A stretch of 21,703 nt of DNA from Neocallimastix sp. 'constans' (lineage: Eukaryota). Where the stretch lies: contig JBODTK010000105.1 of NCBI GenBank assembly GCA_050613775.1, positions 558,001 through 579,703 on the forward strand, read 5' to 3'. The position numbers were made by a program, and so were the translations under genes. This document shows positions 133 to 21,436 of this stretch, one piece after another. The number at the start of each line of letters is the position of its first letter. Position 1 is the first letter of the stretch. The notes beneath the pieces are model-generated. The model was not told where the DNA came from. It saw only the letters and a list, made by a program, of their open reading frames with translations, and made no database searches.

Positions 133-1893
133 GTAGCACATAAAAATCCCGCATATCAATATGAATATCATGAAATAAAAATAACAAAAATAAGCATAAA
201 ACTTAAATAATAATAATAATAATATATATTTAATAGCAATGATAAAATTTCTTATAAAAAAAATACTATTATATAAAATTCTGGTTTGTCTCCTTTTGTA
301 GGGAGAAACTATTTTAAAGAGTATTCTTATTGATATTTATTAAATATTTAAAATTTTTTAGAGTAAAATAGTATAAAAAATAATTATCTTTTATTATAAT
401 ATTAAAGAATAAATTCACAAAAATTATAAACAATAAATTTTTGTTTTATATATTAATAATTAATAATTCTTTAACATAAATTTATTAAATCACGTTACTT
501 TTATAACATTTTTCATTTTATCATTTCATTATTAATTATTGAAATTTATTCATAATTAAAATTTTTATTTAAATTTTTATTTATATTTTTATTATGAAAA
601 GATTTAATTTATTACTTTTTTTTTAATATTTTAAATTGTTTTATTAAAAAAAAAATTAAAAGTTATTTAAATGTGTAATTATATTTCAACTTTCTTTTGG
701 TATATATTATATTTAATGAAATATATATATATATATATATATTTAGTTTAGAATTTTTAAAGAGATATTAATTTTTATATTTTACTATTATTCTATATTA
801 TAATTTTTTTATAGTTCTTTATAAAAATGGCTAAGTATTAATTAATACATCATATTAAATTTATATCCACAATTTGAAAACTATATTTATTATGATAACC
901 ACCATCATTCCTATTGTTATGAAAGTACATCAAAAGAATGTGAAATTTTAAATCAATTAAATAAAAATTGAACTAAGAAAAAAAATAAAATAAAAAGATA
1001 TTTATTATTAATTTAAATAATCTATATATATTATTATTGATTAAAAAAACAATTATGTATTATTTTTTATATATTTTTTTAATTTAATTATTTTAAACTC
1101 TATTCTAATATTAACAAATAATTAATATGATTTAAATTTATGGATATCTTTTAATTATTATTATTATTATTATTATTACACTAAAAATATTATTATTATT
1201 ATTATTATAATAATATTATTATACTTATTATTATTACACTTGTTAAATATTATTATAACTATTATTATTATTATTATTATTATTATCATTTATTATTATT
1301 ATTATAAGGATTAAGATAAAATTTTAAAAAGTTAATTATTTTTAATACATACAAATTTAGTAAAAATTCTAAAAATAAAAAAATTAATTTATTATCTAAA
1401 AGAGATTAAATATATATAGAAAAAAGAGAACTATAGATTCAACTTTTAATAAAATATATGTATAAACATAATTAAATATATATAAAAATAATTAAAAAAA
1501 ATGAAAAAGTAATAAGGAAGGGGTGAAGTAATACTAAAATACTTCTAATTTCTATAACTATTATAATAAAATAATATAGTTATATCTATTATAAATAATT
1601 GTTCAATTTAATAATTTATTATTCTTTTTTATACATCTACAGAGTTAATTTTAATTTTATGATTTTAACTTTCTTTTATATAATTATAATTTAAATCATA
1701 ATATCTGATATAAATATATTTCTATATATTTATATATTTATTAATCATGTATTAATTATAAATATAAATATCATTTGAATATTTTGTTTGATATAAAAAA
1801 TCAATAAACAAATAAATAAATAAAAACAAAAATAAAAAAAAAAACATAAATAAAAAAAGGGGAAAATATTTATATATAAATGTGTATACAAGA

Positions 1894-4532
1894 ATGCGAT
1901 TATTCACAACAATAGTAACTATTGAAAAACTCGGTGAAATAATTTCAAATGGTAATGTTAAAAAATTACGATTTTTATTGGAATATGCAAACAAACATAA
2001 TATTTCACTGGATTTAAATAAAAAAATTAGAAATGAAAGTTATCCTCTTTTTTTAGCAGTAGATAGTGATAATGTTGAAATAGTACAACTGTTATTTCGA
2101 TATGCAGATGATCAAAATATAATATTGAATGTGAATGAAAAAGACAATAAAGGTTATTATCCACTTTATTGGGCAATATGTAAAAATAACATTGATATAG
2201 TTCAACTTCTAATTGAATATGGAGATAATCATAATATTATTTTAACGGTAAATGATAAAGATTATGAAGATGGATGGTATCCACTCTATTTAGCAGCAGA
2301 TAATAACAATGTTATAATATTTAAATTATTGATAGAGTATGCTAATAAGTACAACATTATACTTGAACTAAATGAAAAAAATAAAGATGGATGGTATCCT
2401 CTTATATGGGCAACGCATTATAATAATAATATTGAAATGGTAAAATTATTGAAAGAATACGCAGATAGACATAACATAAAATTAAAATGGGATTGGCAAA
2501 TCAAAAATAATGAAATTATTAAAATATTAGAAAATAATACAGTGGTAATTTTTATTTTATTACACATATTAAATGGAAAAAAAAAAAAAGTATATATAAA
2601 TAAATTAACATGTTATTCTTATTTTATTGTATTATAACTATATATATTTAAAATTATTATCATTTTTTTTTTTGTTTGAAAATAAAATGTAATATATATA
2701 TATTTTCTGATAAAAGGAAAAAAATGGGCAAAAAATACCAAATAAGGAAGAAGAAGAAATGGGTAAATAATATACATAGAACTTTCAAAAGAAAATAATT
2801 AAAAAATAATGATAATTAATAAATTTTCATTTAGAAAATTATATAAAATTTTTATTATTAATATATATATATATTATATATATACAATATGAAATTAAAA
2901 TTAAAAATATAATGTATAAATGTACATATATATATATTATTTAAAATATTTTTTATTAGCTAAAATAATAGAATATATTGAAAATGATGATTTTAATAAT
3001 TTAAATTCATTAATAGAAAATAAGGAGAAACAACAATTATTATTGGAATTAAATAGAAAAAATAAAGATGGAAAATATCCATTCTACTCTGCTATACATA
3101 AAAATAATGAAAAGATTGTTAAATTATTGATTGATTATGCCGATAGAAACAATATTTCATTTGAAATTAACGAAAAAGATAAAAAAGGTACATATCCATT
3201 GATGTCAGCAGCATTCTGTAATAATATTGAAATTATGGGATTAATAAAAGATTATTCTGATCGACATAATATTATCTTAGAATTAAATGAAAAATATAAA
3301 AATGGAGAATATCCTCTTTTGTATGCTGTTGCTAATAATAATAGTCAAATGGTAGATATGATTATGGAGTACGCAGATAAGCATGGTATTTCGTTGGAAT
3401 TAAATGAGAAGACAAAGAATGGATTATATCCATTTTTATTAGCAACAATTAATGAGAATGATAAGATTATTAGTTCGTTAATAGAACATGCCAATAAACA
3501 TCAAATAATTCTGAAAGTGAATGAACGTGATGTTGACTGCGGAATATTTCCATTGCTAGAAGCTGTATCCAAAAATAATATTAAAATTGTTCAGTTATTA
3601 ATAGACTATACCAATAAACAAAATATTGCTTTAGATTTAAATGCAAAAAATAATGAAAATCGATATCCACTTTATTACGCTGTCTCTAATAACAATGTGG
3701 AGATAACAAAATTATTAATGGAATTCGCAGATCAGCATAACATTGTTATAGAATTTAATGAAAAAATTAAAGATGGAAGATTTCCATTTTATATAGCGGT
3801 CTATAAAAACTTTATTGAAATAGTGAAGCTCTTAATAGAATATGCTAATAAGCACGGAATTGATTTGGAAATAAACAAGAAATATGATGATATGTATCCA
3901 TTTGATTTTGTTGTTATAAATAATAATCTTGAGATAGCTAAATTAATAGTGAACTATGCAAATGAACATAATATTAAAGTAGAATGGGATATCGATATTA
4001 CTAATCCTGAGTTTAATAAATTACTGAATTGTACTTCAGAAAATGAAGAAAAGGTAATTAAATAAATAAAAATTTTATTAACTTTATCTTTAAAAAAAAT
4101 GGATAATATCTATATAAACAAATAAAATATTATAGTAAAAGAAATAAAATAATTTAAATTAAAATATTAAGTAAAAAGTAAAATAATTTTTACACTTTAA
4201 TAAAGTAATGATAGTAATATTAATAATAAAAATAGTAATAATAAGTAATAATAATATTAATTTTATATTAAATTATTAATAAAATTTATATTTATAACAA
4301 ATATATAAATGCTTTTTTATATTTTTATTAATTTTTTTTTTAAAAAAAAATAATTAAGAATTTAAATGAAGAAGATAAAGAAAATAATGCACTACCAAAT
4401 AATGCTGATGAATCTACAAAAGAAAAATTAATTAATAATTCTTCTGAGCAAGAATCAATGCATTCATCAACAAAGCATCATGTTTTACAATCATCTAATA
4501 ATTCAGAAATTTCAACTTCATTTCGTCCATAA
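1894..4532 (+). CDS. Ankyrin-repeat protein, spliced: join(1894..2544,2717..2762,2960..4053,4359..4532), 654 aa
   Basis: ORFs 1882-2637 and 2920-4065 encode repeats of the form G.YPL..A...NN.EIVKLLIEYA..HNI.L..NEK. Three GT-AG introns have compatible phases: GTAATT 2545/AAAG 2716 (phase 0), GTAAAT 2763/TTAG 2959 (phase 1, G+CT gives Ala), GTAATT 4054/TAAG 4358 (phase 0). The last exon is open to TAA at 4530-4532. The start ATG at 1894 is the least certain part. Confidence 0.85.
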
Positions 4533-5229: not shown

Positions 5230-6290
5230 ATCAAAGTGTTTTTAAGAAATTATCAATATAAGATAATTTAATTGTATCATCATTATTGGAATTTCTGAGT
5301 CCTTCATTGTTATTTTTAACAAATTTTTCATTAAAAATTAGAATTTTGATATTTAAATATATTATTTTCTATATTTATTTTATTTTGAAAATATATTTTT
5401 AATTATTATTATTATTAATTGGAAATTTTATATGTTCTTTGTAATTTTTATGTTCTCTCTCAAAAAGAAATTGAAAAAGAATAAAAAAAATATTTTAATT
5501 TAAATATTGGGTGTATTTTTATTGAAATGTGCATCAATTACTAACTGCGACAATTGATTTGGAATGGCTATATCATCTTTATTGGGTTCTTTATATTTAC
5601 TTTTATATGTATGATTGGGATTATTAATCATTATAGTAGTTGCACAGACGTTATCAATAGCACCCAACTATCTTAGCATTATTTATATCTAACTTTAAAC
5701 CTTTATATACATGAGATCTAAATTTTAGTGAAACTTCAGATAGTTCTTCAAATGTGATATTACATTTGGTAGTATTTAAATCTTTAACTACATCATATGA
5801 TATATGGTATGCTATCATTTGAATTTTTTATTGTACTTATGGAATCTTGGTTCCTGGAGGCTTATTTACTTTTTACTTTTTTATTTACGAATTTGGTTAT
5901 AGGTTTGGTTAAAGTAATATTATTTTCTTCATGATCAGGAATCTTCACATTCTTATTGTCAATATTCACAATTTCAATAGACGTTTCAAAAGTACTGGCT
6001 CTTTCTATATCTTGAATTGCTTTTTCCTTAGCTTTTTTCATAACCAATTAAGAGTTGAGCCATTATCAAGAGATCAAGGGATATATTTTATATGTCACCT
6101 GTTTAGAAATTGAATTTGTTTCCAGTTCTTCTTCATTTTGAAAAGCAGGTGAAGCAATAGGTGAATGATAATTTTTAAGGCTATTATGAATACTCTTTTC
6201 TTTGTTAGTCTCGTGATCTTTACTAACATTGGTGCTTTTTTTAATGAAAGTAGTAAACAGTAATTTTCATTTAGAAGCAATTCATTATCC
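5230..6290 (-). pseudogene. Decayed Ty3/gypsy gag-protease region
   Basis: Manual minus-strand translation gives SYDVVKDLNTTKCNITFEELSEVSLKFRSHVYKGLKL (about 5800-5690), resembling the pre-protease motif of fungal gypsy polyproteins. After a frameshift it reads KDDIAI...LVIDAHFN, a decayed protease active-site region. Many stops and frameshifts; boundaries approximate. Confidence 0.6.
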
Positions 6291-6291
6291 T

Positions 6292-6775
6292 TGATACGGA
6301 CTGGGGTTGAAACACTAAGATATTCAAATCAAAAAAATAATTATTAACACACAAAGATGAAAATAAATTCGGAAACAAAAAAATTAATTTTTAAATATTC
6401 TTTATTTAAATTTAAAACTAAAATTATTTGTTCCAAGTATTAAAAAGAAAGAAATTTATTCTTCTTTTTATACTTTTATTTAATACATTTTATTTATCTT
6501 TATTATATTTTTTATATAAAAAAAAACTATTCTAACTATTTTATTTTTAACTTTTTACTATTATTTTATATTATTTTTAATATTTTTATATTGCTAAAAA
6601 AAAAACATTTATTAAACTAAACTAATAAAATTAAATTTTGAGGTTGTATCACGAAGGGCGTTCCCTGTGGTAGTTTCTTCTTGATATTGTCTTCATAGAT
6701 AGAATTATACAGAATTGATGTTATCTGTATTTTAGATCATTTTTGTTATTGAAGAATTTCTGTATTTTAGTTATA
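6292..6775 (-). mobile_element. Partial LTR of family A (3' half)
   Basis: Starts TGATACGGACTGGGGTTGAAACACTAAG, aligning with 8822 onward and with the reverse complement of the end of 19354-21410. Similarity stops near 6775. No PBS and no clear TSD. Confidence 0.85.
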
Positions 6776-7063
6776 TCATTTCATAGAATTTTTATTATTA
6801 TCATTATTTTCTTTCATTAAATTTTTATTCTTTTCTTTATCACTATTTACATTATTTTCAATAATTTCATCATTATTATATATATATATATATTTTTTTT
6901 TATTTATTTATTTGTTATCGGTTATTATTAAAAGATTCACAATTACAATTACAATTATTATTATGTTTATATAATTACAACTTAAAAAAAACAAATAAAC
7001 TTAATTAAAAACAAGGTAAATTAACAAACCTAATACAACTTGAAAAACCACTATCTATTACAA

Positions 7064-7357
7064 TCTGCCAACCTCGCAGAGGGACCTTAGTATTTCGGTA
7101 TACTAAGTGAATTTGCCTGAGTCAAGTGGAGGAGTACTCAAACCGTGTTGAACGTATAATGAGTGATCTATAGGGTAATTTCTGCTTCCCAACAGTATTT
7201 ACCTCTATATCTAATCGGGGTTCGATTAGTTAGTAATCGGCCCCTCTCCAAACACTCGATTAAACCACTCGCAATTATAGAATTATCTATAACTGCTTAG
7301 TACGCAGTACTCTCAGTTTAAAGTTTTATTTGGAGCACGCGAAGACCAAATAAAACT
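7064..7357. other. GC-enriched multi-hairpin non-coding segment
   Basis: Six stems: 7064-7068/7076-7080, 7086-7093/7100-7107, 7169-7178/7199-7209, 7211-7217/7223-7229, 7271-7281/7286-7296, 7322-7333/7346-7357. Confidence 0.55.
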
Positions 7358-7377
7358 GATGTTAATTTTTATAACAC

Positions 7378-7408
<31 letters not shown>

Positions 7409-7552
7409 CACTAAAAACCAATGACAATAAAAAAATAAATTATGATGATGATGATAAAAGTGTGAAAATATATATTTTTTTTTTAAATTTAATTAATTTT
7501 AATGTAATTTAATTTAAATCTATTTAGTTTAATTTATAAAAATTTTTTTAAT

Positions 7553-7713
7553 GGTTCCAGTAGTTCTAGTAGTTCCAGTAGTTCCCATAACTTCCAAAAG
7601 TTCCAGTAGCTTCCAAGGTTCCTTCTTCTTCTTTTTCTTCTTTTTCTTCTTCTTTTTCTTCTTTTTCTTCTTCTTCTTCTTCTTCTTCTTCTTCTTCTTC
7701 TTCTTTTTCTTCT
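7553..7713. repeat. Degenerate 9-bp repeats (GTTCCAGTA) followed by a (CTT)n tract
   Basis: Directly visible; lies immediately downstream (minus strand) of the PBS at 7714-7731. Confidence 0.9.
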
Positions 7714-7731
7714 TCCCCGATATCTCCACCA
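7714..7731 (-). promoter_or_regulatory. Primer-binding site complementary to a tRNA-Ala 3' end (TGGTGGAGATATCGGGGA)
   Basis: Begins TGG, 4 nt after the LTR end at 7736. Its complement ...AUCUCCACCA fits the Ala acceptor stem (U70 of the G3:U70 pair). Confidence 0.8.
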
Positions 7732-7735
7732 ATTT

Positions 7736-8364
7736 TGGTAGACTAATTAAATCAAGCAGAGGGGGATGGGAGTTACCCTGCTTTGATTTAATAAATTTAA
7801 TAAAAAAAATTTTTTTTAATAAAATTATTTATTATTTATTAATAATTAATATTTTTCTTGAAGTTACATATTTATATTTTAAAAATTTCTTGTGATATTA
7901 ATATTTTTTTTATAAATTTAACTATAATTAATTGTTTATAATTTAAATAATTTTATAGAATTATTGAATTAATTTTATATCAATAATTCATTTTTGTTTT
8001 AATTTTTATAAATATAATAATATAATATTTAAATATAATTTAATTAGAAATAATTATAAAATAAATATATAGAAAATAGTTTTTACTATTTTCTTTGATA
8101 TTTTTAAGTTAGTTTAAATTAATTTATATCAAAATAAATTAATTTTTATAATTAGGTTTAGGTTATCAAGAATATAGGAAAGTACAATTTAATAAATAAT
8201 TATTAATAATATTTTATACAAAATAAAGGTTATTAATTCATTCTTTACCAAATTTAAACTTGTAATTAGGTTTAGGTTATCAAGAATATAGGAAAGTACA
8301 ATTTAGTAAAGAATTATTAATAATATTTTATACAAAATAAAGGTTATTTATTCATTCTTTACCA
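7736..8364 (-). mobile_element. 5' LTR of family F (629 bp)
   Basis: TGGTA...TACCA termini, followed on the minus strand by the Ala PBS. Hairpin 7748-7790 near its 3' end. Internal duplication 8149-8250/8263-8364. Confidence 0.75.
8149..8364. repeat. Tandem duplication of about 102 bp, period 114
   Basis: TAATTAGGTTTAGGTTATCAAG...CATTCTTTACCA occurs at 8149-8250 and 8263-8364 with a few substitutions. Confidence 0.95.
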
Positions 8365-8368
8365 CATT

Positions 8369-8817
8369 TGGTATGTGTTATTGTACCTGGAGCTTTTTTT
8401 TTGACACTACTCTAGTTAAGATAAATTATTCTAAATTGAATAAACACAAAAATTAATAACTTTTATTTATTTATTATTAAAATATTTTTTTTATTATTTT
8501 TTTTTATTAATATTTTTTTTTATTATATTATTTTATTACAAATTATTTTAGTTATTACATTTTATTATCATCTAGCTAACTATATATTTTTATTTCTTAT
8601 TATCTACACTACATTTTTTTATCTTTTTCCTCTCCTATTCTTTTCTTTCTAATCTCTCTCCCCCTTTTATAATTATTTTCTTATTTATATCTTTTTTATA
8701 TTTTTTTTCTCATTTAAGATTATAGTTGTTTATTTCTTAAAATTTTAAATATTTAATCTTTGAACTTTATTCTTGAATTTATTGTTTATTTCATAGTTAT
8801 TAGGGTGTCCCGTACCA
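8369..8817 (-). mobile_element. Solo LTR of family G (449 bp) with CATT TSD
   Basis: Termini TGGTATG/CGTACCA. CATT on both sides (8365-8368, 8818-8821). Minus orientation is inferred from TATAAAAGGGG at 8671-8661. Confidence 0.75.
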
Positions 8818-8821
8818 CATT

Positions 8822-9814
8822 TGATACTGGCTGGGGTTGAAACACTAAGATATTCAAAACAAAAAAAATAGATATTACACAAAAATGAATTTGGAAACAA
8901 AAACAATTAATTTTTAAAATATTCTTTATTTAAAATTAAAATTAAAATTAAAATTATTTGTTCCCCGGTATTAAAAAGAAAGAAATTTATTCTTCTTTTT
9001 ATACTTTTATTTTAATACATTTTATTTATCATTAATTTATTCTTTATAAAAAAAAAACTATTATAACTATTTTATTTTAATTTTTAACTATTATTTTAAA
9101 TTGTTTTTTTTTTTTGAAAAAAATAACATTTATTAAATAAAAATTAATTTAGAGATTGTATCACGAAGGGCGGTAGCTTCTTCTTGATATTGTTTTCAGA
9201 GAGAGAATTATACAGAATTGATATTTTCTGTATTTTAGATCATTTTTATTATTGAAATTCTTCTGTATTTTAGTTCATTTTTATTTTAATAAAGATTTAA
9301 TTTATTTTTGATTTTTGTTTTATTTTTAGTTTATTTTAAAGGTTTAGAAAATATTATACTGAAACTTATAATTCTGTATTATATATCAAATATTTATTGA
9401 ATTAGGTTTTTATTATACTTAATATAAAAATAAGAATTAGTAATGATTTAAATTATATATAATTTTTAATAAGAGTATTTAGTAATAATTTTTGTTATAT
9501 TTAATATTAATAAAAGAAATTAGTAAGAATATTTAATAATAATTTTTATTATATTTGATATTAATAAAAAATATTTAATAATAATATTTATTAAATTTAA
9601 TATTAATAAAAGAAATTTATAATAATATTTAATAATAATTTTTATTATATTTGATATTAATAAAAGAAATTAGTAAGAATATTTAATAATAAATATTTAT
9701 TATATTTAATATTAATAAAAGAAATTTATAAGAATATTTAATAATAATTTTTATTAAATTATTATTAAGAGTATTTAATAGGAAATACAAGGTATTTAGT
9801 GACACCCCGTATCA
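8822..9814 (-). mobile_element. Solo LTR of family A (993 bp)
   Basis: Termini TGATAC/GTATCA. Colinear in reverse complement with 19354-21410 except for a shorter repeat array. Flanks CATT and TATT (3/4 match). Confidence 0.9.
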
Positions 9815-9818
9815 TATT

Positions 9819-10725
9819 TGTTGAGGTTCGGGACAGATTAATAATAAATATAGAAGTAAACACTAAAATAAAAAAAAAATTAAAAATTAAAATATATCTT
9901 TTTAAAATATTTTATTTATTTATTTAATAAAAATTATTCAATTAAAACTAAAGATAATATAATTTTTTTTGAATAAGATTATATCTTTTAATATTATTTA
10001 TTTAAAATACAATTTTTTCATCTATTTATATTTTTTTTTATCGTTAGAAATGGTCAAGCCATTTCTTTAGAATATTTTAGAGTTATATGTTTGAATTGTA
10101 TTTAAATTATAAATTCATAATCTATTCTATTATAATAAATAATTATTATATATAATTCTAAACTATTTATTATTAATTGTAGTGATAATATATTTTAAAA
10201 ATAATTTTATTACTTTTACAGAACTATTAGTAATAGAGTATTATTTAATTTCATACTATTTTTAAATAAAAGTATTTTAGATTATTATCTATTATTAATA
10301 TTATTATAAATAGGGTGTATTTTGGAAGGAAGTATTACTAATTTTAATGACAAGGATCATGGATTTAAATAAAATATTTTTAAATCATTATTAATTATAT
10401 TAATTTTATTAATAATAAATAATCTGTATTAGTAATATTTGTAAAATAAAATTTTCTTTAATAATAAAATATTAATAGAATAAATCATATTAATAAAACT
10501 AGATATTGATAATAATATTGATATTAATAATATAGTATTATTTTTAATAATAAAGTATTGATATCGATAAAGAATTTATATTAATAATAATAAATTTAAT
10601 ATTAGTAATAATTTGGCAGAACATAAGAAAGTTCTCCAAGTAAGGAAATAAATAATTAAATTTTAGTGGTTAAGTTATTTTTATGAAAAATAATAAAATT
10701 AAATTTATTTGTTCATTCCTTAACA
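9819..10725 (-). mobile_element. 3' LTR of gypsy element B (907 bp)
   Basis: Minus-strand termini TGTTAAGG...CCTCAACA (7/8 inverted match). Immediately preceded by a PPT-like tract and the end of pol. Confidence 0.8.
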
Positions 10726-10740
10726 AGATGCCCTCGCTAA
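10726..10740 (-). promoter_or_regulatory. PPT-like plus-strand priming site of element B (TTAGCGAGGGCATCT)
   Basis: Lies between the pol stop (10749-10751) and the LTR. Same ...ATCT|TG junction as the PPT at 18676-18690. Confidence 0.65.
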
Positions 10741-10748
10741 GACTCAAG

Positions 10749-13612
10749 CTATACAGAAGCTGAGTTAAACTTGATTATGTTCTTCAAGTGAACATTGCGG
10801 TTCATTTATATACCCGACTTAGGATCGGCCAATGTTGCTGTGTTGAATTGTTTCTTAATTACTTGGAGTGGTCCAACAAAATATGGTTCTAACTTGGTTC
10901 GAGTAAAATTCCTTACTAAGACTAAATCACCAGGTTTTATTTTTTTGGCCTGATTCATACTATTCTTTTGTTCTCTACGAGTAGCCCAGTATTTATTTGC
11001 ATTTTTGATAATGGCCGCAGCTTCCATAGTCCATAAGTAGTGATTGACAAATTTTTCCAATAGGATTTCATCCGAAGATTTGTTTACACTTTTAGTTGGT
11101 CTAGCAGATATTTCAAAGGGTTGTTGGTCTTCTCGTCCATAAACAAGTTCAAAGCTAGAGTGATTAGTAACCGAATTTTTGGTTGTACGAAGAGCCCATA
11201 AAGCGGATGGTAAGACTTCGTCCCATTCTTTTTGTTTATTTTCTAAAAGTCTAAGTAGTTTTCCAATTTCTATATTTCGGTTTTCTGTAAGACCGTTCGT
11301 TTCTGGATGATAAGTGGTACTGTAAAAGAAAACACAAAAATAGATTACAATAACAAAATACAATAAATTTTATTTTATTAAAAAATTTTTTATTAAAATA
11401 TATTTTATTAATATTTAATAGTTATTTGTTAAAAATAACAATTACATCGAGAAAAAATGTGAAAAGTATCTTCTATTTATACTTTTCCTAAATACATTGA
11501 TAATACATTATTTTATTTAAATTACATATATTTTAATATAAAACTATCCTAATGAATTTTATTAAATAATAAATTTATAAACTATAACTAAATTTAGAAA
11601 AATATAATTATTAATTAAACTAAATACTAAATAATTAAAATTAAGTACATTTATTATCTATTTATTATTTTAATATTATAAGTAAAGTCTTTATTTATTT
11701 TCGATTTAAAAACAATGTTAAAGGAGTCATGATTAAATTTTGAAACTTAATTTTCACAAAATAAATTATTAATTTATTTTGTTTTAAACTTTAATTAATT
11801 CATTTAAATTATTTTACAACAATAATTTTCTCAGAATTAAAATTTATAAAAATTATTACATTAAAAATTTATCTTGTGGCTTAAAGAATATAATTCAAAA
11901 ATTTAGTTCATATGATTTATTTACTTTGTTTATTATTTTATAAATCAAAGAATAATTTACATTTTTGAATTACACAAGAAAAATTTTTAATTTAAAATGT
12001 GATTGGGATAATCACATCTTTACAGGTACTGAACCTCACATACACATCATAAAGATCTAGGAACATTTTTGTCATATCCGAATTGAATTGAACACCATTA
12101 TCAGTTGTAATTATTTGAGGCACACCATGAGGAGAGATTATATTAATTAAAAATCTTATTACCTCTTTTGAAGTTACATTTTCAGTTGGCTCGGCCTCTA
12201 CCCATTTAGTATAATAGTCCACGATTACCAAAATATATTTATTATTGTTTGATGTTTTCTCTAGAGGTCCAATTATATCTAAACCTAAATGTGTGAAAGG
12301 TCCTTCAACTTCTGTAGGAATATCTTCTGTTGGTTCTGGGTATGCTTTGGGTCTATTTAATTGACATTGTTCGCATTTTGAAATAATTCTTTTAATATCG
12401 TTTACCATGTTGTTCCAATAGTAACTTTTTCGTAATCGTTGGTAAGTTTTATTATATCCTTCATGTCCTATGCCATGAGCTTCAAGAATAAGTTTGACCT
12501 TTTTATTAGTATTAGTGATTAATTTCCTATAAGTATTTCCATCTACAAAGTATTCAATTCCATCAATTGTTGTAAATTTTTCTTCCATAAATTCTTTTAC
12601 AACTATAGATAATAAAGATTCATCAACTTTTGAAGAGAGTTTTGTTGCCAATATTTTTTTATCATTTATACTTTTCATTCGAGAAAGAACATCAGCTACA
12701 ACATTCTTTTTGCCAGGTTCATATCGAATTTCTACACCTAAAAGATTTATAGCTAAACACCATCTGGTTTGTCGAGCACTTGTTGGTTCTTTCTTGTTGA
12801 ATAATCCTACTAAGGGTTTATGGTCAGTATAGATTATTGTTTTAATGGGATTTCCCATAATATAAGGTCTAAATTTTGTTAAACAATAAAATAGAGCAGT
12901 TCCTTCTAGATCTGTAATTCCGTAATTTCTTTCATGTTTAGTTAATGTTCTACTTTTATAGTGTACAGGATGCTCTTTTTTGTTTCATCATCTTTTTGTA
13001 ATAGGACACCACCAATGCCATCATACGATGCATCTGTTCGAATAATAATTCTTTCTCGAAACATGGAAATTTTAAAATTGGTGCATTCATTAATTTTTCT
13101 TTAAGTATATTAAAGCTATCATTTTGCTCTTTATTCCATTGGAATTCAACATATTTTCTTAACAATTTGCAGAGAGGAGCAGTGATTCGAGCAAATTTAT
13201 CGATGAAATATCGATAATAACCTATCGCCCCTAGGAAAGACCGTAATTCATGGAAGTTTGAAGGAGGTTTCCAATTTTTAATTGATTCAATCTTGCTATC
13301 AAGAGGGCTCAGACCTTTTGCAGATACTTTGTGACCGAGGACTTCAACTTCTGTTTGCATAAACGAACATTTTTCAATATTGATCTTAAGTTTGTGTTCT
13401 TTGAAAACAGCGAGTACTTTAGCAATATGTTCGAGGTCTTCTTCTAAAGATTTTGAGTATATAAGGATATCGTCAATGAAGTTGAAAACGAAATCACCAA
13501 TGAAAAGGAAGAGAATTTTGTTCATCTCACGTTGAAAAGTTGCTGGAGCGTTAGTAAGTCCGAAAGGCATGACTTTGAATTGATAATTTCCGAATTTTGT
13601 GGTAAAACTGGT
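10749..13612 (-). pseudogene. pol: Ty3/gypsy pol (RT - RNase H - integrase), disrupted and 5'-truncated
   Basis: RT motifs MPFGLTNAPATFQ and FIDD; RNase H TDAS/DLEG/YTDHKPL; integrase HHCC (H-GIGH...CEQC), DDE (LDIIGP, TTDNG, LTEN) and a GPY/F-like tail. The RT-RH-IN order is gypsy. Lesions: frameshift near 13047, solo LTR 11321-12024, premature TAA at 10806-10808; native stop at 10749-10751. Confidence 0.95.
11321..12024. mobile_element. Solo LTR (704 bp) inserted in the integrase, 5-bp TSD GGTAC
   Basis: TGTAAA...TTTACA termini; GGTAC at 11316-11320 and 12025-12029. Removing it restores VRFSTTYHPETNG. Confidence 0.92.
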
Positions 13613-13917
13613 AAAACTTCAGAATCAAGGAATAATTTTAAGTCTGAATACCATTTGTGAAAGTTTTCATTTGAAATTCTAAAGTTTTGAATGTGAAATT
13701 TATTAATTGTGTTGGTTTGAATATTTGGAGGTTCTACTTCGACAAGAGTATCGTTCATTGTTGTACTAAATGTATTTGTAGTCTTTGTTGTCTTTGGAGG
13801 TTCTACTTCGACAAGAGTATCGTTCATTGTTGTACTAAATGTATTTGTAGTTTTTGTTGTCTTTGAAGAAATTTTTGAAGAAATCCCCGTAGCTGTTGAA
13901 TTATCTGATTTAGTCAT
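13613..13917 (-). pseudogene. gag: Probable Ty1/copia gag N-terminus, truncated
   Basis: ATG at 13917, about 120 nt after an LTR. ENFHKWYSDLKLFL resembles the copia gag N(Y/F)xxW motif. It is fused to gypsy RT near 13610. Confidence 0.55.
13724..13865. repeat. 69-bp in-frame tandem duplication (KTTKTTNTFSTTMNDTLVEVEPP x2)
   Basis: Copies start at 13724 and 13793 and differ by one substitution. Confidence 0.95.
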
Positions 13918-14036: not shown

Positions 14037-14088
14037 TGTTAAATATAACACTTAAATTCAGAAATGATATTTATATTTTATTATGTGT

Positions 14089-14131
<43 letters not shown>

Positions 14132-14499: not shown

Positions 14500-15126
14500 T
14501 GTAACGGAGGTGCTTCTATTGTAAAGGCGGGATGAGATATAGAAACACAGAAAGGAGAAAACTCAATAGGTTTACACTATCTGTATAAATAATTCGTTTT
14601 ATTAGAAATATTTTTTATTAATTATAAAATTTAAAATAATTATTAATATTAATCAACAAGGTAATATTTCGAATTACTTATACGTTAATTATTATTAATA
14701 AAAGCACGAAGAAAAATATTTTCATTCGTGAAGTTCGCACTATTTATACTTTTAACGGAAAAACAGTTTTAACATGTAAAAATAATTTTAAAGAAATATT
14801 TAGAAATATGTTTGTAATAATTAATAATGTAAAGTTTCTAGAATATAGATTTTAATTGATGAAAATGAATCTTATCAAAAAAGAATAAAATAATTTATAT
14901 AATAAGAATTTCTAAATTCATTTCGGTTGAATTACGAACCGAAAGAATCTTTAACTTTCTATAATTTTATACAGAAAGAATATTCAAGAAGATATTATTA
15001 ATAATTAATAAAATAATTAATAAAATAATTATTTATGCAAAATGGGTTGAGGTGTGAGTCGAACCCATGAAGTATTGGTCATGGTCGATGTAACTAACCA
15101 TTGAACCAAAGTTCTAATTTTACTAA
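14500..15126. mobile_element. LTR-like segment interrupted by the right-hand insertion stack
   Basis: Abrupt compositional shift at TGTAACGG (14500); hairpins at about 14705-14730 and 14921-14944. No partner end was found in the window. Confidence 0.35.
15043..15115 (-). promoter_or_regulatory. Degenerate tRNA-like type-2 Pol III promoter (A box + B box)
   Basis: A-box-like TGGTTCAATGG (15108-15098) and B box GGTTCGACTC (15065-15056). T8-to-G53 spacing is 44 nt versus about 45 in tRNAs. Acceptor, D and anticodon stems do not pair. Confidence 0.65.
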
Positions 15127-15130
15127 CTGA

Positions 15131-15784
15131 TGATACGATACCACTATAAAAATAAGATTTAGGTAAGAAATTTAGGTTAGAAATATTGTATAAATATTAT
15201 TGGTTATAATAATTAAAATAATTTATATATAGTTAATTCAAATAATTATTTTTAAAAGCATGGTTAATTCTTTTGTCATAATTAAAAATAGATAAATTAT
15301 ATTATTAATGATTCTATTATTATGATAATAAATTAATTCATCATTATTATTAATAAGTTTTATTTTATATTTTAAATATTATTTTGAGAATTATATAGTT
15401 TTAGGAATTATATTATAAATATTGATAATTATATTTTATTCAGGAAATATATTTTAAATATTAATAGTTAAATATATTTAATAATGAAATTGTATTTTTA
15501 AATAAAGTTATTAGGAAATTAATAGTTAAAGAGATATGTTTAATAAAAATATAATATTAATTAATTATTTTAACAATTATATAAAATTAAGAGAATGTAA
15601 TAATAAATTATTATGTATGTAAAAATAAAATTATAAAAATAAATAAAGAACAAAATATTATTATAAAACATTATTATTATAAATTATTTTCTTATATTTA
15701 TTAGAATATATTATTGTGTCATAATTCCCTAGAGAAACGACCAAATAAATAAATAACTAGATATGGAATATTTTAAATGTTCTG
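15131..15784 (+). repeat. 5' LTR of E (lacks the terminal TATCA)
   Basis: Matches 18691-19344 at offset 3560. Confidence 0.95.
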
Positions 15785-16396
15785 ATGCATGTCCAGTAAA
15801 AATAATAGAAAATAATAGAAAAATTATTTAGAAAAATTATTAATATAAATATTTATTAAAAATTAATTTTATATAATGAATCTTAAAATATATTATTAAT
15901 ATATTATTAAAGATAATTTATTATTATTAATTATTAAAATATTAAATTAAATAATAATATTAAAAATATTAAAAGAATTGTTGATAATATAGTAAAATTA
16001 GTTATATTAATTATAACGGAGATTGAATGTTTAATTAAATTGATGTTAATATTAAAATAATTTTTAAATAATGTTAAACAATATGAATTAATAGTTATAA
16101 GTAAAAAGTTATGAATATTTATATTTATTAATTAATTTTAGTGTTTCGATAAATAAAATTTATAAAATTAGTAAAAAATATAATTATGAAAATAATTTAT
16201 AAATAAATATTTTCTTTTTTTTTAAGGAATAATAATAAAACATGTATTTTTTTTATGATAAAATATAATAAATAAAATAATAAAAGATAAATAACTAAAA
16301 AGTAAATATAATTATTGTAATATAATATTCTTGGAGTAATTCCCTTTTGCACAAACGCCCAACTAACATATACGGTATTTAATAAAATATCGTATC
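15783..16396 (+). mobile_element. Extra diverged LTR-like unit (E') between the 5' LTR and the PBS
   Basis: Starts TGATGC, ends CGTATC just before TAAAA and the PBS. Shares the subterminal motif TAATTCCCT...AAACG.CCAA.TAA with LTR E (16337 vs 15722). Confidence 0.55.
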
Positions 16397-16401
16397 TAAA
16401 A

Positions 16402-16419
16402 TGGTGGAGAATCCGGGCG
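16402..16419 (+). promoter_or_regulatory. tRNA-Ala primer-binding site (TGGTGGAGAATCCGGGCG)
   Basis: Complement ...GAUUCUCCACCA fits an Ala acceptor stem; identical 18-mer at 21419. Confidence 0.88.
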
Positions 16420-16460
16420 TTTCTCTAGCATGATAATATGAAAATAATAAAAATTTGAAA

Positions 16461-16463
<3 letters not shown>

Positions 16464-16525
<62 letters not shown>
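16464..16525. repeat. (AAT)n microsatellite in the leader of E
   Basis: Directly visible. Confidence 0.95.
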
Positions 16526-16526
<1 letters not shown>

Positions 16527-16724
16527 AAAAAAAAAATATCGTGTAATAAAATAATAGTTTATTTTAACACGTAAAGATAATATTAATAGTTTTTAATGAC
16601 ACGTAATAAAGTAATAGTTTAAAATAGTAAATAATAAAATAATAGTTATTTAAAATGTTATAATATATATTATTTAAAATAACGCGTAATAGAAATAAAT
16701 ATAAACAAAAAAAAAGAAAAAAAT

Positions 16725-16769
<45 letters not shown>

Positions 16770-16775
16770 ACCAAA

Positions 16776-18431
16776 ATGAATGTTCAAGGCTTAATAAAAG
16801 AACTACCATTATTAGTCAATTATGGAAGGGATATTGATGGATGGATTAAGGACTTTGAGGAAGTTATGGAATTATGGGAGATTTACACATTGAGGCAACA
16901 ATACTTTTGGATAATTAAATGTGTAAATCAAGACATAAGTATAGAAATTAAAATATTAAAAGAAAAGTATAAAAGAAATGAATATCCAACATTAAAAGAA
17001 ATACAATATGCCATTGAAAAATATTTAAATATTACTCAAAGTGAAAAATGCTGGACTTTAAAGACCATAAAAGTTCCAAATGATACAAAAATTTCAATTT
17101 TTAATGTAACTTATAGAAGACTATTAAAGAATTTGGAGTGCGACTTTAGAAAATTAGTGACAATTGAAGATTATTTAAATTCAATAAAAGTTAGACGTTT
17201 CCCATATCAACAAGTAATTATAAAAGGATGCAAAACTATAGAAGATGCTATGAAAACTGCTTCTCTCGCTGAAAGAATAGAAAATGAATTAATAGAATCT
17301 AATAAGGAAGAAAGAGAATACTTTAATAACCATAAAATAACTTATAATAAGAGAAACAATAGGACTGACCCTTATAACACATCTTTTAGAGAATATGGAT
17401 TAATAAATGAAAATATTAATAAAAATTTTAGGAAATTTAATTTTAATTATTACAATAATTATAATAATAAATTAAAAACTAATAATTATTATAATAAAAT
17501 AAATAATTTTACGCCTAGACAAAACAAAATGAATTATTATAAAAGAAATTATAATATTGAACAAAATAAAAATTTTAATAATTTTGATTCGGGTTATACT
17601 AATGTTAAATGTGGCAATTCAAATTTTAATTGTAAAGAAAATTATTTAAAATCTATGAATAATTCTAATTGTAATTCTTGCATGAATGTTAATTCAATAA
17701 ATAATTATTATATTAATAAAGAAAATTTGAATTCATATTATTATTATGGTAATATTAATAGTTCTTCAAAAGGTATTTATAAAGAAATAATAAATAGTAA
17801 TTATGATCATAATATTAATAGTAAAGATACTTGCACTATTGAAGAAAATTATAATTTAAATTCCGTGGATGAAAATGTTAATGTTAAGGGCGAATCAGGA
17901 AATAAACACGTAAATAATGATAATGATAGAATTCAAACTAAAATCACAACTTATAATGATAATATGGATAAACAAATTATTGAAGAAAATATAGAAGGTA
18001 ATATGGTAATTAATAAATTGAGTGATACTATTCTCGAAGGTAACGTATATAATCCATCACATAAACTAATTCCAGTAGAAAAGAAAAACGAAAACATATT
18101 ATTATGTAAAGAGGAAAGTAAATTATTAGAAAGTAAACCTATTGATAAATTGAAAATAAATAAAATTAAGATGGAAGGAAATAATTTAAATATTTATAAT
18201 GAAATGATAAATAAAATTAAAATAAATTCTGATAATAAAATAATAATAAAAAAAATACCTACTGTAGAAAATTCCAACCAAAATAATGGTAATAGCAAAA
18301 ATAATTCAAAAAGAAAATTTAAAATTAAATTTAATTATAAAAATACAATTATTAAAAAGTATAATAATAATAGGAAAGATACAAAGTGTATTATCAGGAA
18401 TTACAAATATAAAAGAAAAAGAAAAACATAG
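16776..18431 (+). CDS. gag: Gag-like protein (551 aa) with a long Asn/Lys-rich tail
   Basis: Intact ORF between PBS and PPT. The N-terminal ~170 aa has a capsid-like pattern (DIDGWIKDFEEVMELWEI; ISIFNVTYRRLL); the remainder is low complexity. The call rests on position and motif resemblance. Confidence 0.75.
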   Translation: MNVQGLIKELPLLVNYGRDIDGWIKDFEEVMELWEIYTLRQQYFWIIKCVNQDISIEIKILKEKYKRNEYPTLKEIQYAIEKYLNITQSEKCWTLKTIKVPNDTKISIFNVTYRRLLKNLECDFRKLVTIEDYLNSIKVRRFPYQQVIIKGCKTIEDAMKTASLAERIENELIESNKEEREYFNNHKITYNKRNNRTDPYNTSFREYGLINENINKNFRKFNFNYYNNYNNKLKTNNYYNKINNFTPRQNKMNYYKRNYNIEQNKNFNNFDSGYTNVKCGNSNFNCKENYLKSMNNSNCNSCMNVNSINNYYINKENLNSYYYYGNINSSSKGIYKEIINSNYDHNINSKDTCTIEENYNLNSVDENVNVKGESGNKHVNNDNDRIQTKITTYNDNMDKQIIEENIEGNMVINKLSDTILEGNVYNPSHKLIPVEKKNENILLCKEESKLLESKPIDKLKINKIKMEGNNLNIYNEMINKIKINSDNKIIIKKIPTVENSNQNNGNSKNNSKRKFKIKFNYKNTIIKKYNNNRKDTKCIIRNYKYKRKRKT

Positions 18432-18675
18432 TTTGAATATAATTCAATTAAATTTTCAAAATTCAAAATTCAAAAATTCAAAATTTAAATTATTAAATTT
18501 CAAATTTCAAATTTCAAATTTCAAATTTCTATAAAAAAAAAAAAAAAAAATTTATACATAATATTTTTATGTTTTTACTTTTTTAACAAAATATATATAA
18601 AAATTTAATTATTAAATAATTAAAAAAAAAAATTTTTTTTTTTTTCGCCTGACTTCAAGGGACGAAGTCTTATTT

Positions 18676-18690
18676 AAAGTGGGGGAATCT
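18676..18690 (+). promoter_or_regulatory. Polypurine tract (AAAGTGGGGGAATCT)
   Basis: Abuts the 3' LTR start; preceded by a GACTTC/GAAGTC stem typical in position of gypsy 3' ends. Confidence 0.85.
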
Positions 18691-19349
18691 TGATACGATA
18701 CCACTATAAAAATAAGATTTAGGTAAGAAATTTAGGTTAGAAATATTGTATAAATATTATTGGTTATAATAATTAAAATAATTTATATATAGTTAATTCA
18801 AATAATTATTTTTAAAAGCATGGTTAATTCTTTTGTCATAATTAAAAATAGATAAATTATATTATTAATGATTCTATTATTATGATAATAAATTAATTCA
18901 TCATTATTATTAATAAGTTTTATTTTATATTTTAAATATTATTTTGAGAATTATATAGTTTTAGGAATTATATTATAAATATTGATAATTATATTTTATT
19001 CAGGAAATATATTTTAAATATTAATAGTTAAATATATTTAATAATGAAATTGTATTTTTAAATAAAGTTATTAGGAAATTAATAGTTAAAGAGATATGTT
19101 TAATAAAAATATAATATTAATTAATTATTTTAACAATTATATAAAATTAAGAGAATGTAATAATAAATTATTATGTATGTAAAAATAAAATTATAAAAAT
19201 AAATAAAGAACAAAATATTATTATAAAACATTATTATTATAAATTATTTTCTTATATTTATTAGAATATATTATTGTGTCATAATTCCCTAGAGAAACGA
19301 CCAAATAAATAAATAACTAGATATGGAATATTTTAAATGTTCTGTATCA
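18691..19349 (+). repeat. 3' LTR of E (659 bp)
   Basis: TGATAC...GTATCA; follows the PPT and is followed by the TSD. Confidence 0.95.
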
Positions 19350-19353
19350 CTGA

Positions 19354-21410
19354 TGATACGGGGTGTCACTAAATACCTTGTATTTCCTATTAAATACTCT
19401 TAATAATAATAAAATAAAATTATTATTAAATATTCTTATTAAAATCTTTTATTAATATCAAATATAATAAAAATTATTATTAAATATTCTTATAAATTTC
19501 TTTTATTAATATTAAATATAATAAAAATTATTATTAAATATTCTTATAAATTTCTTTTATTAATATTAAATATAATAAAAATTATTAAATATTCTAATAA
19601 AAATCTTTTATTAATATCAAATATAATAAAAATTATTATTAAATATTCTTATTAAAATCTTTTATAATAAAAATTATTATTAAATATTCTTATATAATTC
19701 TTTTATTAATATTAAATATAATAAAAATTATTATTAAATATTCTTATTAAAATCTTTTATAATAAAAATTATTATTAAATATTCTTATAAAATTCTTTTA
19801 TTAATATTAAATATAATAAAAATTATTATTAAATATTCTTATTAAAATCTTTTATTAATATCAAATATAATAAAAATTATTAAATATTCTAATAAAAATC
19901 TTTTATTAATATTAAATATAATAAAAATTATTATTAAATATTCTTATTAAAATCTTTTATAATAAAAATTATTATTAAATATTCTTATAAAATTCTTTTA
20001 TTAATATTAAATATAATAAAAATTATTATTAAATATTCTTATTAAAATCTTTTATTAATATCAAATATAATAAAAATTATTAAATATTCTAATAAAAATC
20101 TATTATTAATATTAAATATAATAAAAATTATTATTAAATATTCTTATTAAAATCTTTTATAATAAAAATTATTATTAAATATTCTTATAAAATTCTTTTA
20201 TTAATATTAAATATAATAAAAATTATTATTAAATATTCTTATTAAAATCTTTTATTAATATCAAATATAATAAAAATTATTAAATATTCTAATAAAAATC
20301 TTTTATTAATATTAAATATAATAAAAATTATTATTAAATATTCTTATTAAAATCTTTTATAATAAAAATTATTATTAAATATTCTTATAAAATTCTTTTA
20401 TTAATATCAAATCTAATAAAAATTATTATTAAATATTCTTATTAAAATCTTTTATTAATATCAAATATGATAAAAATTATTATTAAATATTCTTATAAAT
20501 TTCTTTTATTAATATCAAATATAATAAAAATTATTATTAAATATTCTTATTAAAATCTTTTATAATAAAAATTATTATTAAATATTCTTATAAAATTCTT
20601 TTATTAATATTAAATATAATAAAAATTATTATTAAATATTCTTATTAAAATCTTTTATTAATATCAAATCTAATAAAAATAATTATTAAATATTTTATTA
20701 ATATTAAATATAATAAAAATTATTACTAAATATTCTTATTAAAAATTATATAATATTTAAATCATTACTAATTCTTATTTTTATATTAAGAATAATAAAA
20801 ACCTATTTCAATAAATATTTGATGTAAAATACAGAATTATAAGTTTCTGTATAATATTTTCTAAAACCTTTGAAATAAACTAAAAATAAAACAAAATTAA
20901 AAATAAATTAAATCTTTATTAAAATAAAAATGAACTAAAATACAGAAGAATTCCAATAATAAAAATGATCTAAAATACAGAAAATATCAATTCTGTATAA
21001 TTTTCTCTCTGAATAACAATATCATGAAGAAGCTACCGCCTGGAATGCCCTTCGTGATACAAGCTCCAAATTAATTTTTTTATATTTTTATTTAATAAAT
21101 GTTATTTTTTTTTTTTTAAAAAATAATTTAAAATAATAGTTAAAAATTAAAATAAAATAGTTATAATAGTTTTTTTTTTTATAAAGAATATATTAATAAT
21201 AAATAAAATGTATTAAAATAAAAGTATAAAAAGAAGAATAAATTTCTTTCTTTTTAATACTTGGAACAAATAATTTTAATTTTAAATTTAAATAAAGAAT
21301 ATTTTAAAATTTAATTTTTTTTCTTGTTTCCAAATTTATTTTTATAGTTATGTGTTAATATTTATTTTTTTGTTTTGAATATCTTAGTGTTTCAACCCCA
21401 GCCCGTATCA
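19354..21410 (+). mobile_element. 5' LTR of a family-A element (2057 bp); the element continues past the window end
   Basis: Perfect 9-bp inverted termini TGATACGGG/CCCGTATCA; homologous to 8822-9814; PBS follows after 8 nt. Confidence 0.92.
19405..20750. repeat. AT-rich minisatellite (about 54-bp unit with shorter variants) with a 200-bp higher-order repeat
   Basis: Unit ~TAAAAATTATTATTAAATATTCTTATWAAWTCTTTTATTAATATYAAATATAA. The same blocks recur at 19741, 19941, 20141 and 20341. Confidence 0.93.
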
Positions 21411-21418
21411 TAAAAATT

Positions 21419-21436
21419 TGGTGGAGAATCCGGGCG
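21419..21436 (+). promoter_or_regulatory. tRNA-Ala primer-binding site
   Basis: TGGTGGAGAATCCGGGCG, identical to 16402-16419. Confidence 0.9.

Follow-up and report, generated by a model that had tools for sequence, protein, structure and literature searches.

Four LTR families stacked on 4-nt spacers in Neocallimastix: probable serial insertion at a Pol III start site

Pol III-targeted integration of the Ty3 type is characterised by a dependence on TFIIIB/TFIIIC and on intact A and B boxes. Ty3 itself inserts within 1–4 nt of Pol III starts, where it is positioned by TFIIIB (PMC5911963). It leaves 5-bp duplications, occurs in both orientations and binds Brf1 via a vestigial chromodomain located after the CTD (PMC8632968). 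The DGLT-A elements of dictyostelids are without a chromodomain and comprise several sister families, found 10–19 and 13–33 nt upstream of tRNA genes (PMC5006619); their RNase H binds Tfc4 in two-hybrid and pull-down experiments, and a tether through this contact was proposed (PMC6101501). Tj1 of Schizosaccharomyces japonicus has a fixed orientation and lies 10–11 nt upstream in the insertions listed (PMC4600332), and in Yarrowia several tDNA-associated families without chromodomain (Tyl3/Tyl6, LTRyl7–9) are located at 15–17 nt (PMC5014426). Transcription by Pol III begins at a ttCAan motif some 13 nt upstream of the mature tRNA (PMC6673722). Most LTR tandems, including those of plants, share one LTR by recombination (PMC5932611, PMC11899658), and double-insertion tandems in Drosophila keep the target between the elements (PMC5932611). 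PMC10886601, PMC9674265 and PMC7175516 gave nothing further on the question. Position-specific insertion, Pol III start targeting (Ty3, Tj1, DGLT-A) and a duplication kept between tandem elements are already known.

Here we analyse a stretch of 21,703 nt from Neocallimastix sp. 'constans' (contig JBODTK010000105.1, positions 558,001 to 579,703), referred to as the window, with a G+C content of about 18%. Four LTRs follow each other in it at 4-nt spacing, and we consider it probable that they were stacked by successive insertion at a Pol III (tRNA-type) start site whose gene has since been lost or displaced. The stack is most likely an unusually deep, multi-family case of Pol III start-site targeting in a lineage for which no description was found. 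The distinctive features are the four families, the 4-bp duplications and an integrase without Ty3's tethering chromodomain. Our search, covering mainly open-access main texts, revealed no literature on targeting or stacking in Neocallimastigomycota or on base-exact stacks of four families.

Geometry of the four-LTR stack

The stack consists of LTR F (7736–8364), the spacer CATT (8365–8368), LTR G (8369–8817), a second CATT (8818–8821), LTR A (8822–9814), the spacer TATT (9815–9818) and LTR B (9819–10725), the spacers being read on the plus strand. The coordinates, TG..CA termini and spacers listed in the original prediction were all found to be exact on re-reading. In the inverted ends the first 5, 5, 6 and 4 bases of F, G, A and B, respectively, are complementary. 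The CATT between F and G is presumably a target-site duplication, and TATT differs from it by one mismatch. The chance of a second spacer equal to the first and a third within one mismatch is 0.002–0.003 for any 4-mer and 0.0005 for CATT, a calculation that leaves out of account the constant length of exactly 4 nt in each gap.

Assignment of the LTRs to four different families was confirmed. Masked blastn between the families gave zero matches, pointing to AT-rich background likeness only, and five of the six pairwise scores lay inside the range of 20 shuffles. The remaining pair, A and B, was slightly above it with a score of 130 versus a shuffle maximum of 104; A reached 1432 against its own sister copy. 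The model of tandems sharing one LTR was discarded, being inapplicable to unrelated LTRs separated by spacers.

The minus orientation proposed for all four LTRs holds for F, A and B and is an assumption for G. F is oriented by its primer-binding site, which runs from 7731 downward, B by a polypurine-like tract and the integrase end, and A by its membership in the same family as a plus-strand copy at 19354 that precedes a primer site. Read on the minus strand, the order is integrase end, purine tract, B, 4 nt, A, 4 nt, G, 4 nt, F, a 4-nt gap and the primer-binding site. The four are not equivalent solo LTRs: its termini and the downstream primer-binding site mark F as a 5' LTR, B closes a broken Ty3/gypsy element as its 3' LTR, and G and A remain as the only solo copies. 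The 5' LTR of B and the far end of the F element are absent from the window, so that the outermost duplications are not visible, and the window contains no second remnant of a B, F or G LTR.

A scan of the window for two termini separated by 0–10 nt gave five matches at a distance of 4, four of which are junctions of called LTR ends (three in the stack, one at 19345). The other distances yielded 0–4 matches each, none of them between two called LTR ends. Matching of the flanking duplications amounts to 4/4 bases for G (CATT on both sides), 3/4 for A (CATT and TATT) and 4/4 for a further element, C, for which a rival reading exists (see below). The prediction that one 4-bp target was struck repeatedly in the same orientation fits all tests, with the third spacer one base off, and we regard serial insertion at one 4-bp target as very probable. 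An internal control is provided by insert E (11321–12024, no strand assigned), a solo-LTR-like sequence of 704 bp with the ends TGTAAA..TTTACA in the integrase of B. It is an ordinary nested insertion of another family at an arbitrary coding position and carries a 5-bp duplication, GGTAC, which shows that the 4-bp families behave differently.

It is very improbable that F, G, A and B represent a composite repeat, a co-integrated cDNA concatemer or an assembly artefact. Such an origin is favoured by the F/G junction, which is spanned by none of the contig pieces listed (32 of 6547) in a comparison limited to 7705–8450. However, one fixed composite repeat can be ruled out, since A occurs in two other contexts in the window and F-type 5' ends have three other neighbours in public runs, and the called termini are real. 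Joined ends of a cDNA concatemer should keep primer-side and tract-side bases (CT on the tract side in B and C), which the spacers do not contain. A misjoin would not be expected to produce matching spacers between intact termini on three occasions.

Element B and the LTR families

On the minus strand LTR B is preceded by a polypurine-tract-like stretch (10726–10738) resembling the one that precedes C's 3' LTR, and by a broken pol (10749–13618) with the order RT, RNase H, integrase that characterises Ty3/gypsy elements. Between the end of the integrase and the LTR lie 23 nt. Judging from its position, the segment at 13621–13917 (minus strand) is likely where B's gag begins, a deletion having fused it to mid-RT; a Pfam gag match was not obtained for it, and the primer site and 5' LTR of B are missing. 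The best solved match of the B-type integrase is that of Ty3 (7q5b, E 2.3e-42). The alignment of a full-ended relative with Ty3 Gag-Pol reaches residue 1439 of 1547, and this relative stops about 10 residues later; it therefore lacks the vestigial chromodomain. A chromodomain was likewise absent from B's own pol and from all four of its relatives that were scanned. Judged by sequence, the integrase of B is of the non-chromodomain kind and not that of a chromovirus, a result that applies to B and its relatives, as the integrases of F, G and A lie outside the window. Among named relatives, those closest to the pol protein bear the source label Orpsp1, which we take to be a JGI code denoting an anaerobic gut fungus, the likely kind of host. 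Viral contigs contained neither relatives of the pol nor A termini, and three distant loci in prokaryote genomes (33–36% identity) were left unused.

The primer-binding site of F (7714–7731, minus strand) is complementary to a tRNA 3' end and starts with TGG 4 nt past the terminal CA of the LTR; from the position of G3.U70 we assume an alanine-type tRNA. The gap between LTR and primer site amounts to 4 nt in F (7732–7735, minus strand) and C (16398–16401) and to 8 nt in A (21411–21418). The primer sites of F on the one hand and of C and A on the other presumably correspond to two different alanine-type sequences. These gaps are longer than the 2 nt of DGLT-A and Tyl3 (PMC5006619, PMC5014426). 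Primer sites after F, C and A as well as purine tracts before B and C are found as hallmarks of Ty3/gypsy elements, and G, with neither a primer site nor a purine tract in the window, presumably belongs to the same class. The left flank of F, ATTT, is not a target duplication; it is the normal gap between LTR and primer site.

The length of this gap is the basis of another explanation, in which the junctions arose from recombination or template switching at the joint of LTR and primer site and the spacers are primer-site gaps. It draws on the 4 nt before the TGG of the primer site in F and C, on the TGGT that also begins LTRs F and G, on a G-like end in the public run X2 showing 4 nt followed by TGG, and on the AA with which all three spacers begin on the element strand, like the primer-site gaps. 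Against this, B is a 3' LTR and hence followed by target DNA, A's own primer gap in the window is 8 nt long, the gaps read AAAT and AAAA where the spacers read AATG, AATG and AATA, and a second stack carries CTGA. We consider an origin of this kind quite improbable.

F is a high-depth repeat in all four public runs compared. Its 5' end is doubled internally over 114 nt (8146–8250 versus 8260–8364, 96% identical). A fifth, truncated F insertion was considered as the cause of the doubling; a local duplication is simpler, and joints in runs X1 and X13 skip 115–118 nt. Close to the 3' end of F a strong hairpin is located at 7746–7800 (z −4.5, 0/200 shuffles as stable), a region in which contigs of X2 and X4 skip 94 nt.

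Two further copies of LTR A are present in the window. One is a 5' LTR on the plus strand (19354–21410) with a primer site at 21419, which is 96.5% identical to the stacked A over 543 aligned bases of the 3' part. In this copy a 41/54-nt AT-rich repeat has grown to about 1.3 kb (19400–20700), giving an LTR of 2057 nt versus 993 nt in the stack. The other (6292–6772, minus strand) is 5'-truncated, belongs to no stack and could represent an off-target insertion. It borders likely retroelement coding remnants: the minus strand of 5500–6280 contains short open frames like those of decayed retroelement coding DNA, for which zero matches to pol relatives or the ORF of C were obtained.

Element C, the second stack and free 5' ends

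Element C (15131–19349, plus strand) comprises a 5' LTR (15131–16397), a primer site at 16402 and a 3' LTR (18691–19349). The latter is shortened by about 610 nt. C is young, as its LTRs are identical over the 653 bases they share. It encodes a single ORF (16734–18431) of 551 residues, without pol and without a Pfam match, and is likely non-autonomous. The 5' LTR terminates in CT instead of CA.

C is flanked by CTGA at 15127–15130, its left duplication, and again at 19350–19353, where the four bases form the spacer to the second A copy. The resulting order, CTGA, C, CTGA and an A LTR, constitutes a second 4-nt stack within the window and supports the further prediction that base-precise targeting is common to several families. 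The second stack can also be explained by nesting, i.e. an insertion into the 3' LTR of C, and an internal CTGA of C's LTR (15782–15785) lies exactly at the break of the 3' LTR. Each of the two readings, serial stacking and nesting, needs one coincidence.

The 5' end of C is located 15 nt upstream of a degenerate tRNA-like head (15045–15115, minus strand) and faces away from it. The A box of the head lies at 15108 and the B box at 15064, 44 nt apart. Within the window, two pairs of A and B boxes show tRNA spacing versus 0.017 per shuffle (300 shuffles), the A-box pattern having been widened after the head had been seen and the other pair lying inside integrase coding DNA. A-box-like matches number 11 in 43,406 strand positions. 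As a tRNA, the head was recognised by neither ARAGORN nor Rfam and showed no cloverleaf on folding; Rfam gave zero matches both in the window and in 14980–15140, and low-threshold ARAGORN output was noise. Since A and B boxes are found at tRNA spacing, yet the tRNA tests failed, the head is likely a tRNA-derived pseudogene or a SINE head. We predict that the second stack likely had this head as its Pol III target. The window contains it once, beyond the LTRs, as opposed to TRIMp3 and Helenus, which have a tRNA-like sequence inside both LTRs (PMC10886601). A (TAAA)n run at 14085–14130, about 1 kb downstream of the head on the same strand, could be a SINE-like tail.

Additional 5' ends were found in contigs of four public runs, which were compared with 7705–8450 at 85% likeness. 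Loose ends are listed for 24 of 481 cases, and three of these 24 begin at the F-type 5' terminus (inner copy, 8250). In two contigs of run X2 the F-type end is followed by 18 nt and the A-box-like TGGTTCAGTG, with the first tRNA-like base 11 nt from the LTR; this sequence seems similar to the beginning of glycine tRNA genes in eukaryotes. One contig of X2 continues from the F-type end with CAAA and TGGTA, so that at this other locus 4 nt separate it from an LTR-like end. One contig of run X13 carries a polypurine tract at the F-type end, as expected before a 3' LTR, which confirms the terminus. These loose ends comprise 9–30 letters in one or two contigs of a faecal metagenome and may belong to a related fungus. 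The public sequence matches came from three coded organisms and from metagenomes of faecal origin. Compared with the majority letters of run X1, possibly the source of the window itself, F differs at only four listed places. Neither the coverage in X13, present on F and lacking in the bins of G, nor the far higher summed depth of X1 on F than on G was used as evidence. A metagenome scan for the 5' terminus of A gave three matches, all of them by chance in GC-rich, prokaryote-like DNA.

Both readable free 5' ends are thus located at heads bearing an A box (C at 15 nt, the F-type end in X2 at 11 nt); none is visible at the main stack. These distances fall within the published ranges for DGLT-A, Tj1 and the Yarrowia elements.

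Probable serial insertion at Pol III start sites

The insertions into the stack were probably guided to an RNA polymerase III start site. Each integration would copy four target bases, one copy staying beside the gene, and the earlier element would be pushed away while the site remains available and in register. With a Pol III promoter inside the gene and a duplication that restores the start bases, the same bases can be used again, and such a reusable start site results in equal gaps, equal spacers and an absence of nesting, as seen. The four elements would face the same way with the predicted 5' LTR toward the gene, and G and A would have collapsed to solo LTRs by recombination of their own LTRs, keeping both spacers. 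Among four independent targets, three (CATT, CAAA and TCAG) have CA within the first three bases toward the gene, which is a weak signal in AT-rich DNA and resembles the ttCAan start motif (PMC6673722).

The predicted order of insertion is F, then G, A and B, which would make F the oldest and B the youngest. The state of the elements does not support this order: B is the most decayed, with a deletion and a nested insert, and F shows only the four listed differences from the X1 majority. The target gene would be placed beyond the lost 5' LTR of B, and a tRNA-like gene was found at neither end of the stack. Both observations would also suit serial insertion with a different target, namely the end of an LTR already in place or a short sequence together with an LTR end. 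Each new element would then have been added to the 3' end of the preceding LTR, with B first and F last. In favour of this are the target gene not visible at the stack, the decay of B compared to F as the LTR closest to its family majority, and the double insertion at one site described for strongly site-preferring elements (PMC5932611). However, both readable free 5' ends adjoin A-box heads, and the targets CATT, CTGA and CAAA differ, showing the absence of a fixed recognition word. We regard LTR-end targeting as unlikely. Counterpoints to the preferred reading, insertion at a Pol III start, are the mismatch in the third spacer, the head at 15115 failing the tRNA tests, the unstacked truncated A, and the example of Ty3, which leaves 5-bp duplications and requires a chromodomain missing from B.

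Similar to Ty3 and sigma of Saccharomyces cerevisiae are the order RT, RNase H, integrase, the integrase match and the geometry of insertion. Several features differ from Ty3: the duplication comprises 4 bp (G, A, C) instead of 5 bp, a single orientation is seen in all cases and points away from the gene in both readable ones, the integrase of B ends before the vestigial chromodomain, the primer is presumably of the alanine type, and several families are found at one base. The tether cannot be that of Ty3, due to the missing chromodomain in B. Targeting without this domain is possible, as exemplified by DGLT-A, which shares with the present elements the lack of a chromodomain (B in our case), the presence of several families and, at the two readable ends, a similar distance to tRNA-like heads. 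Unlike them, DGLT-A inserts in either orientation and has a single ORF (PMC5006619), and the base-exact multi-family stacks found here are not mentioned for DGLT-A in the accessible parts of PMC5006619 and PMC6101501. Candidate tethers are an SH3-like end of the integrase binding TBP or an RNase H–TFIIIC contact as proposed for DGLT-A. Pol III start targeting would be common to our elements, Tj1 and those of Yarrowia, and the fixed orientation is shared with Tj1. As in the Drosophila double insertion, the target is retained between elements, with the difference that the Drosophila and plant tandems in the accessible texts are of the same family (PMC5932611, PMC11899658).

In the wider reading, for which we see about even chances, anaerobic gut fungi harbour a whole chromodomain-less Ty3/gypsy clade that follows one base-exact, single-orientation, 4-bp Pol III start rule, degenerate tRNA-derived heads included, by means of a non-Ty3 tether, and the stacks are ordered tapes of family succession. 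In such a multi-family clade the frequency with which Pol III targeting evolves, and the contacts involved, would become testable. The stacks would date the families relative to one another with no need for a molecular clock, and a base-exact safe-harbour integrase would be of use where fungi are difficult to engineer.

The remainder of the window holds two single-copy stretches of higher G+C content, at 7040–7350 and 14500–14580, neither with an ORF or an Rfam match of its own; Rfam on 6980–7420 returned only two matches, both by chance. The stretch at 14500–14580 starts LTR-like with TGTAACGG, a matching end being absent. At 1816–4065 an ankyrin-repeat gene with a periodicity of 117 nt is located.
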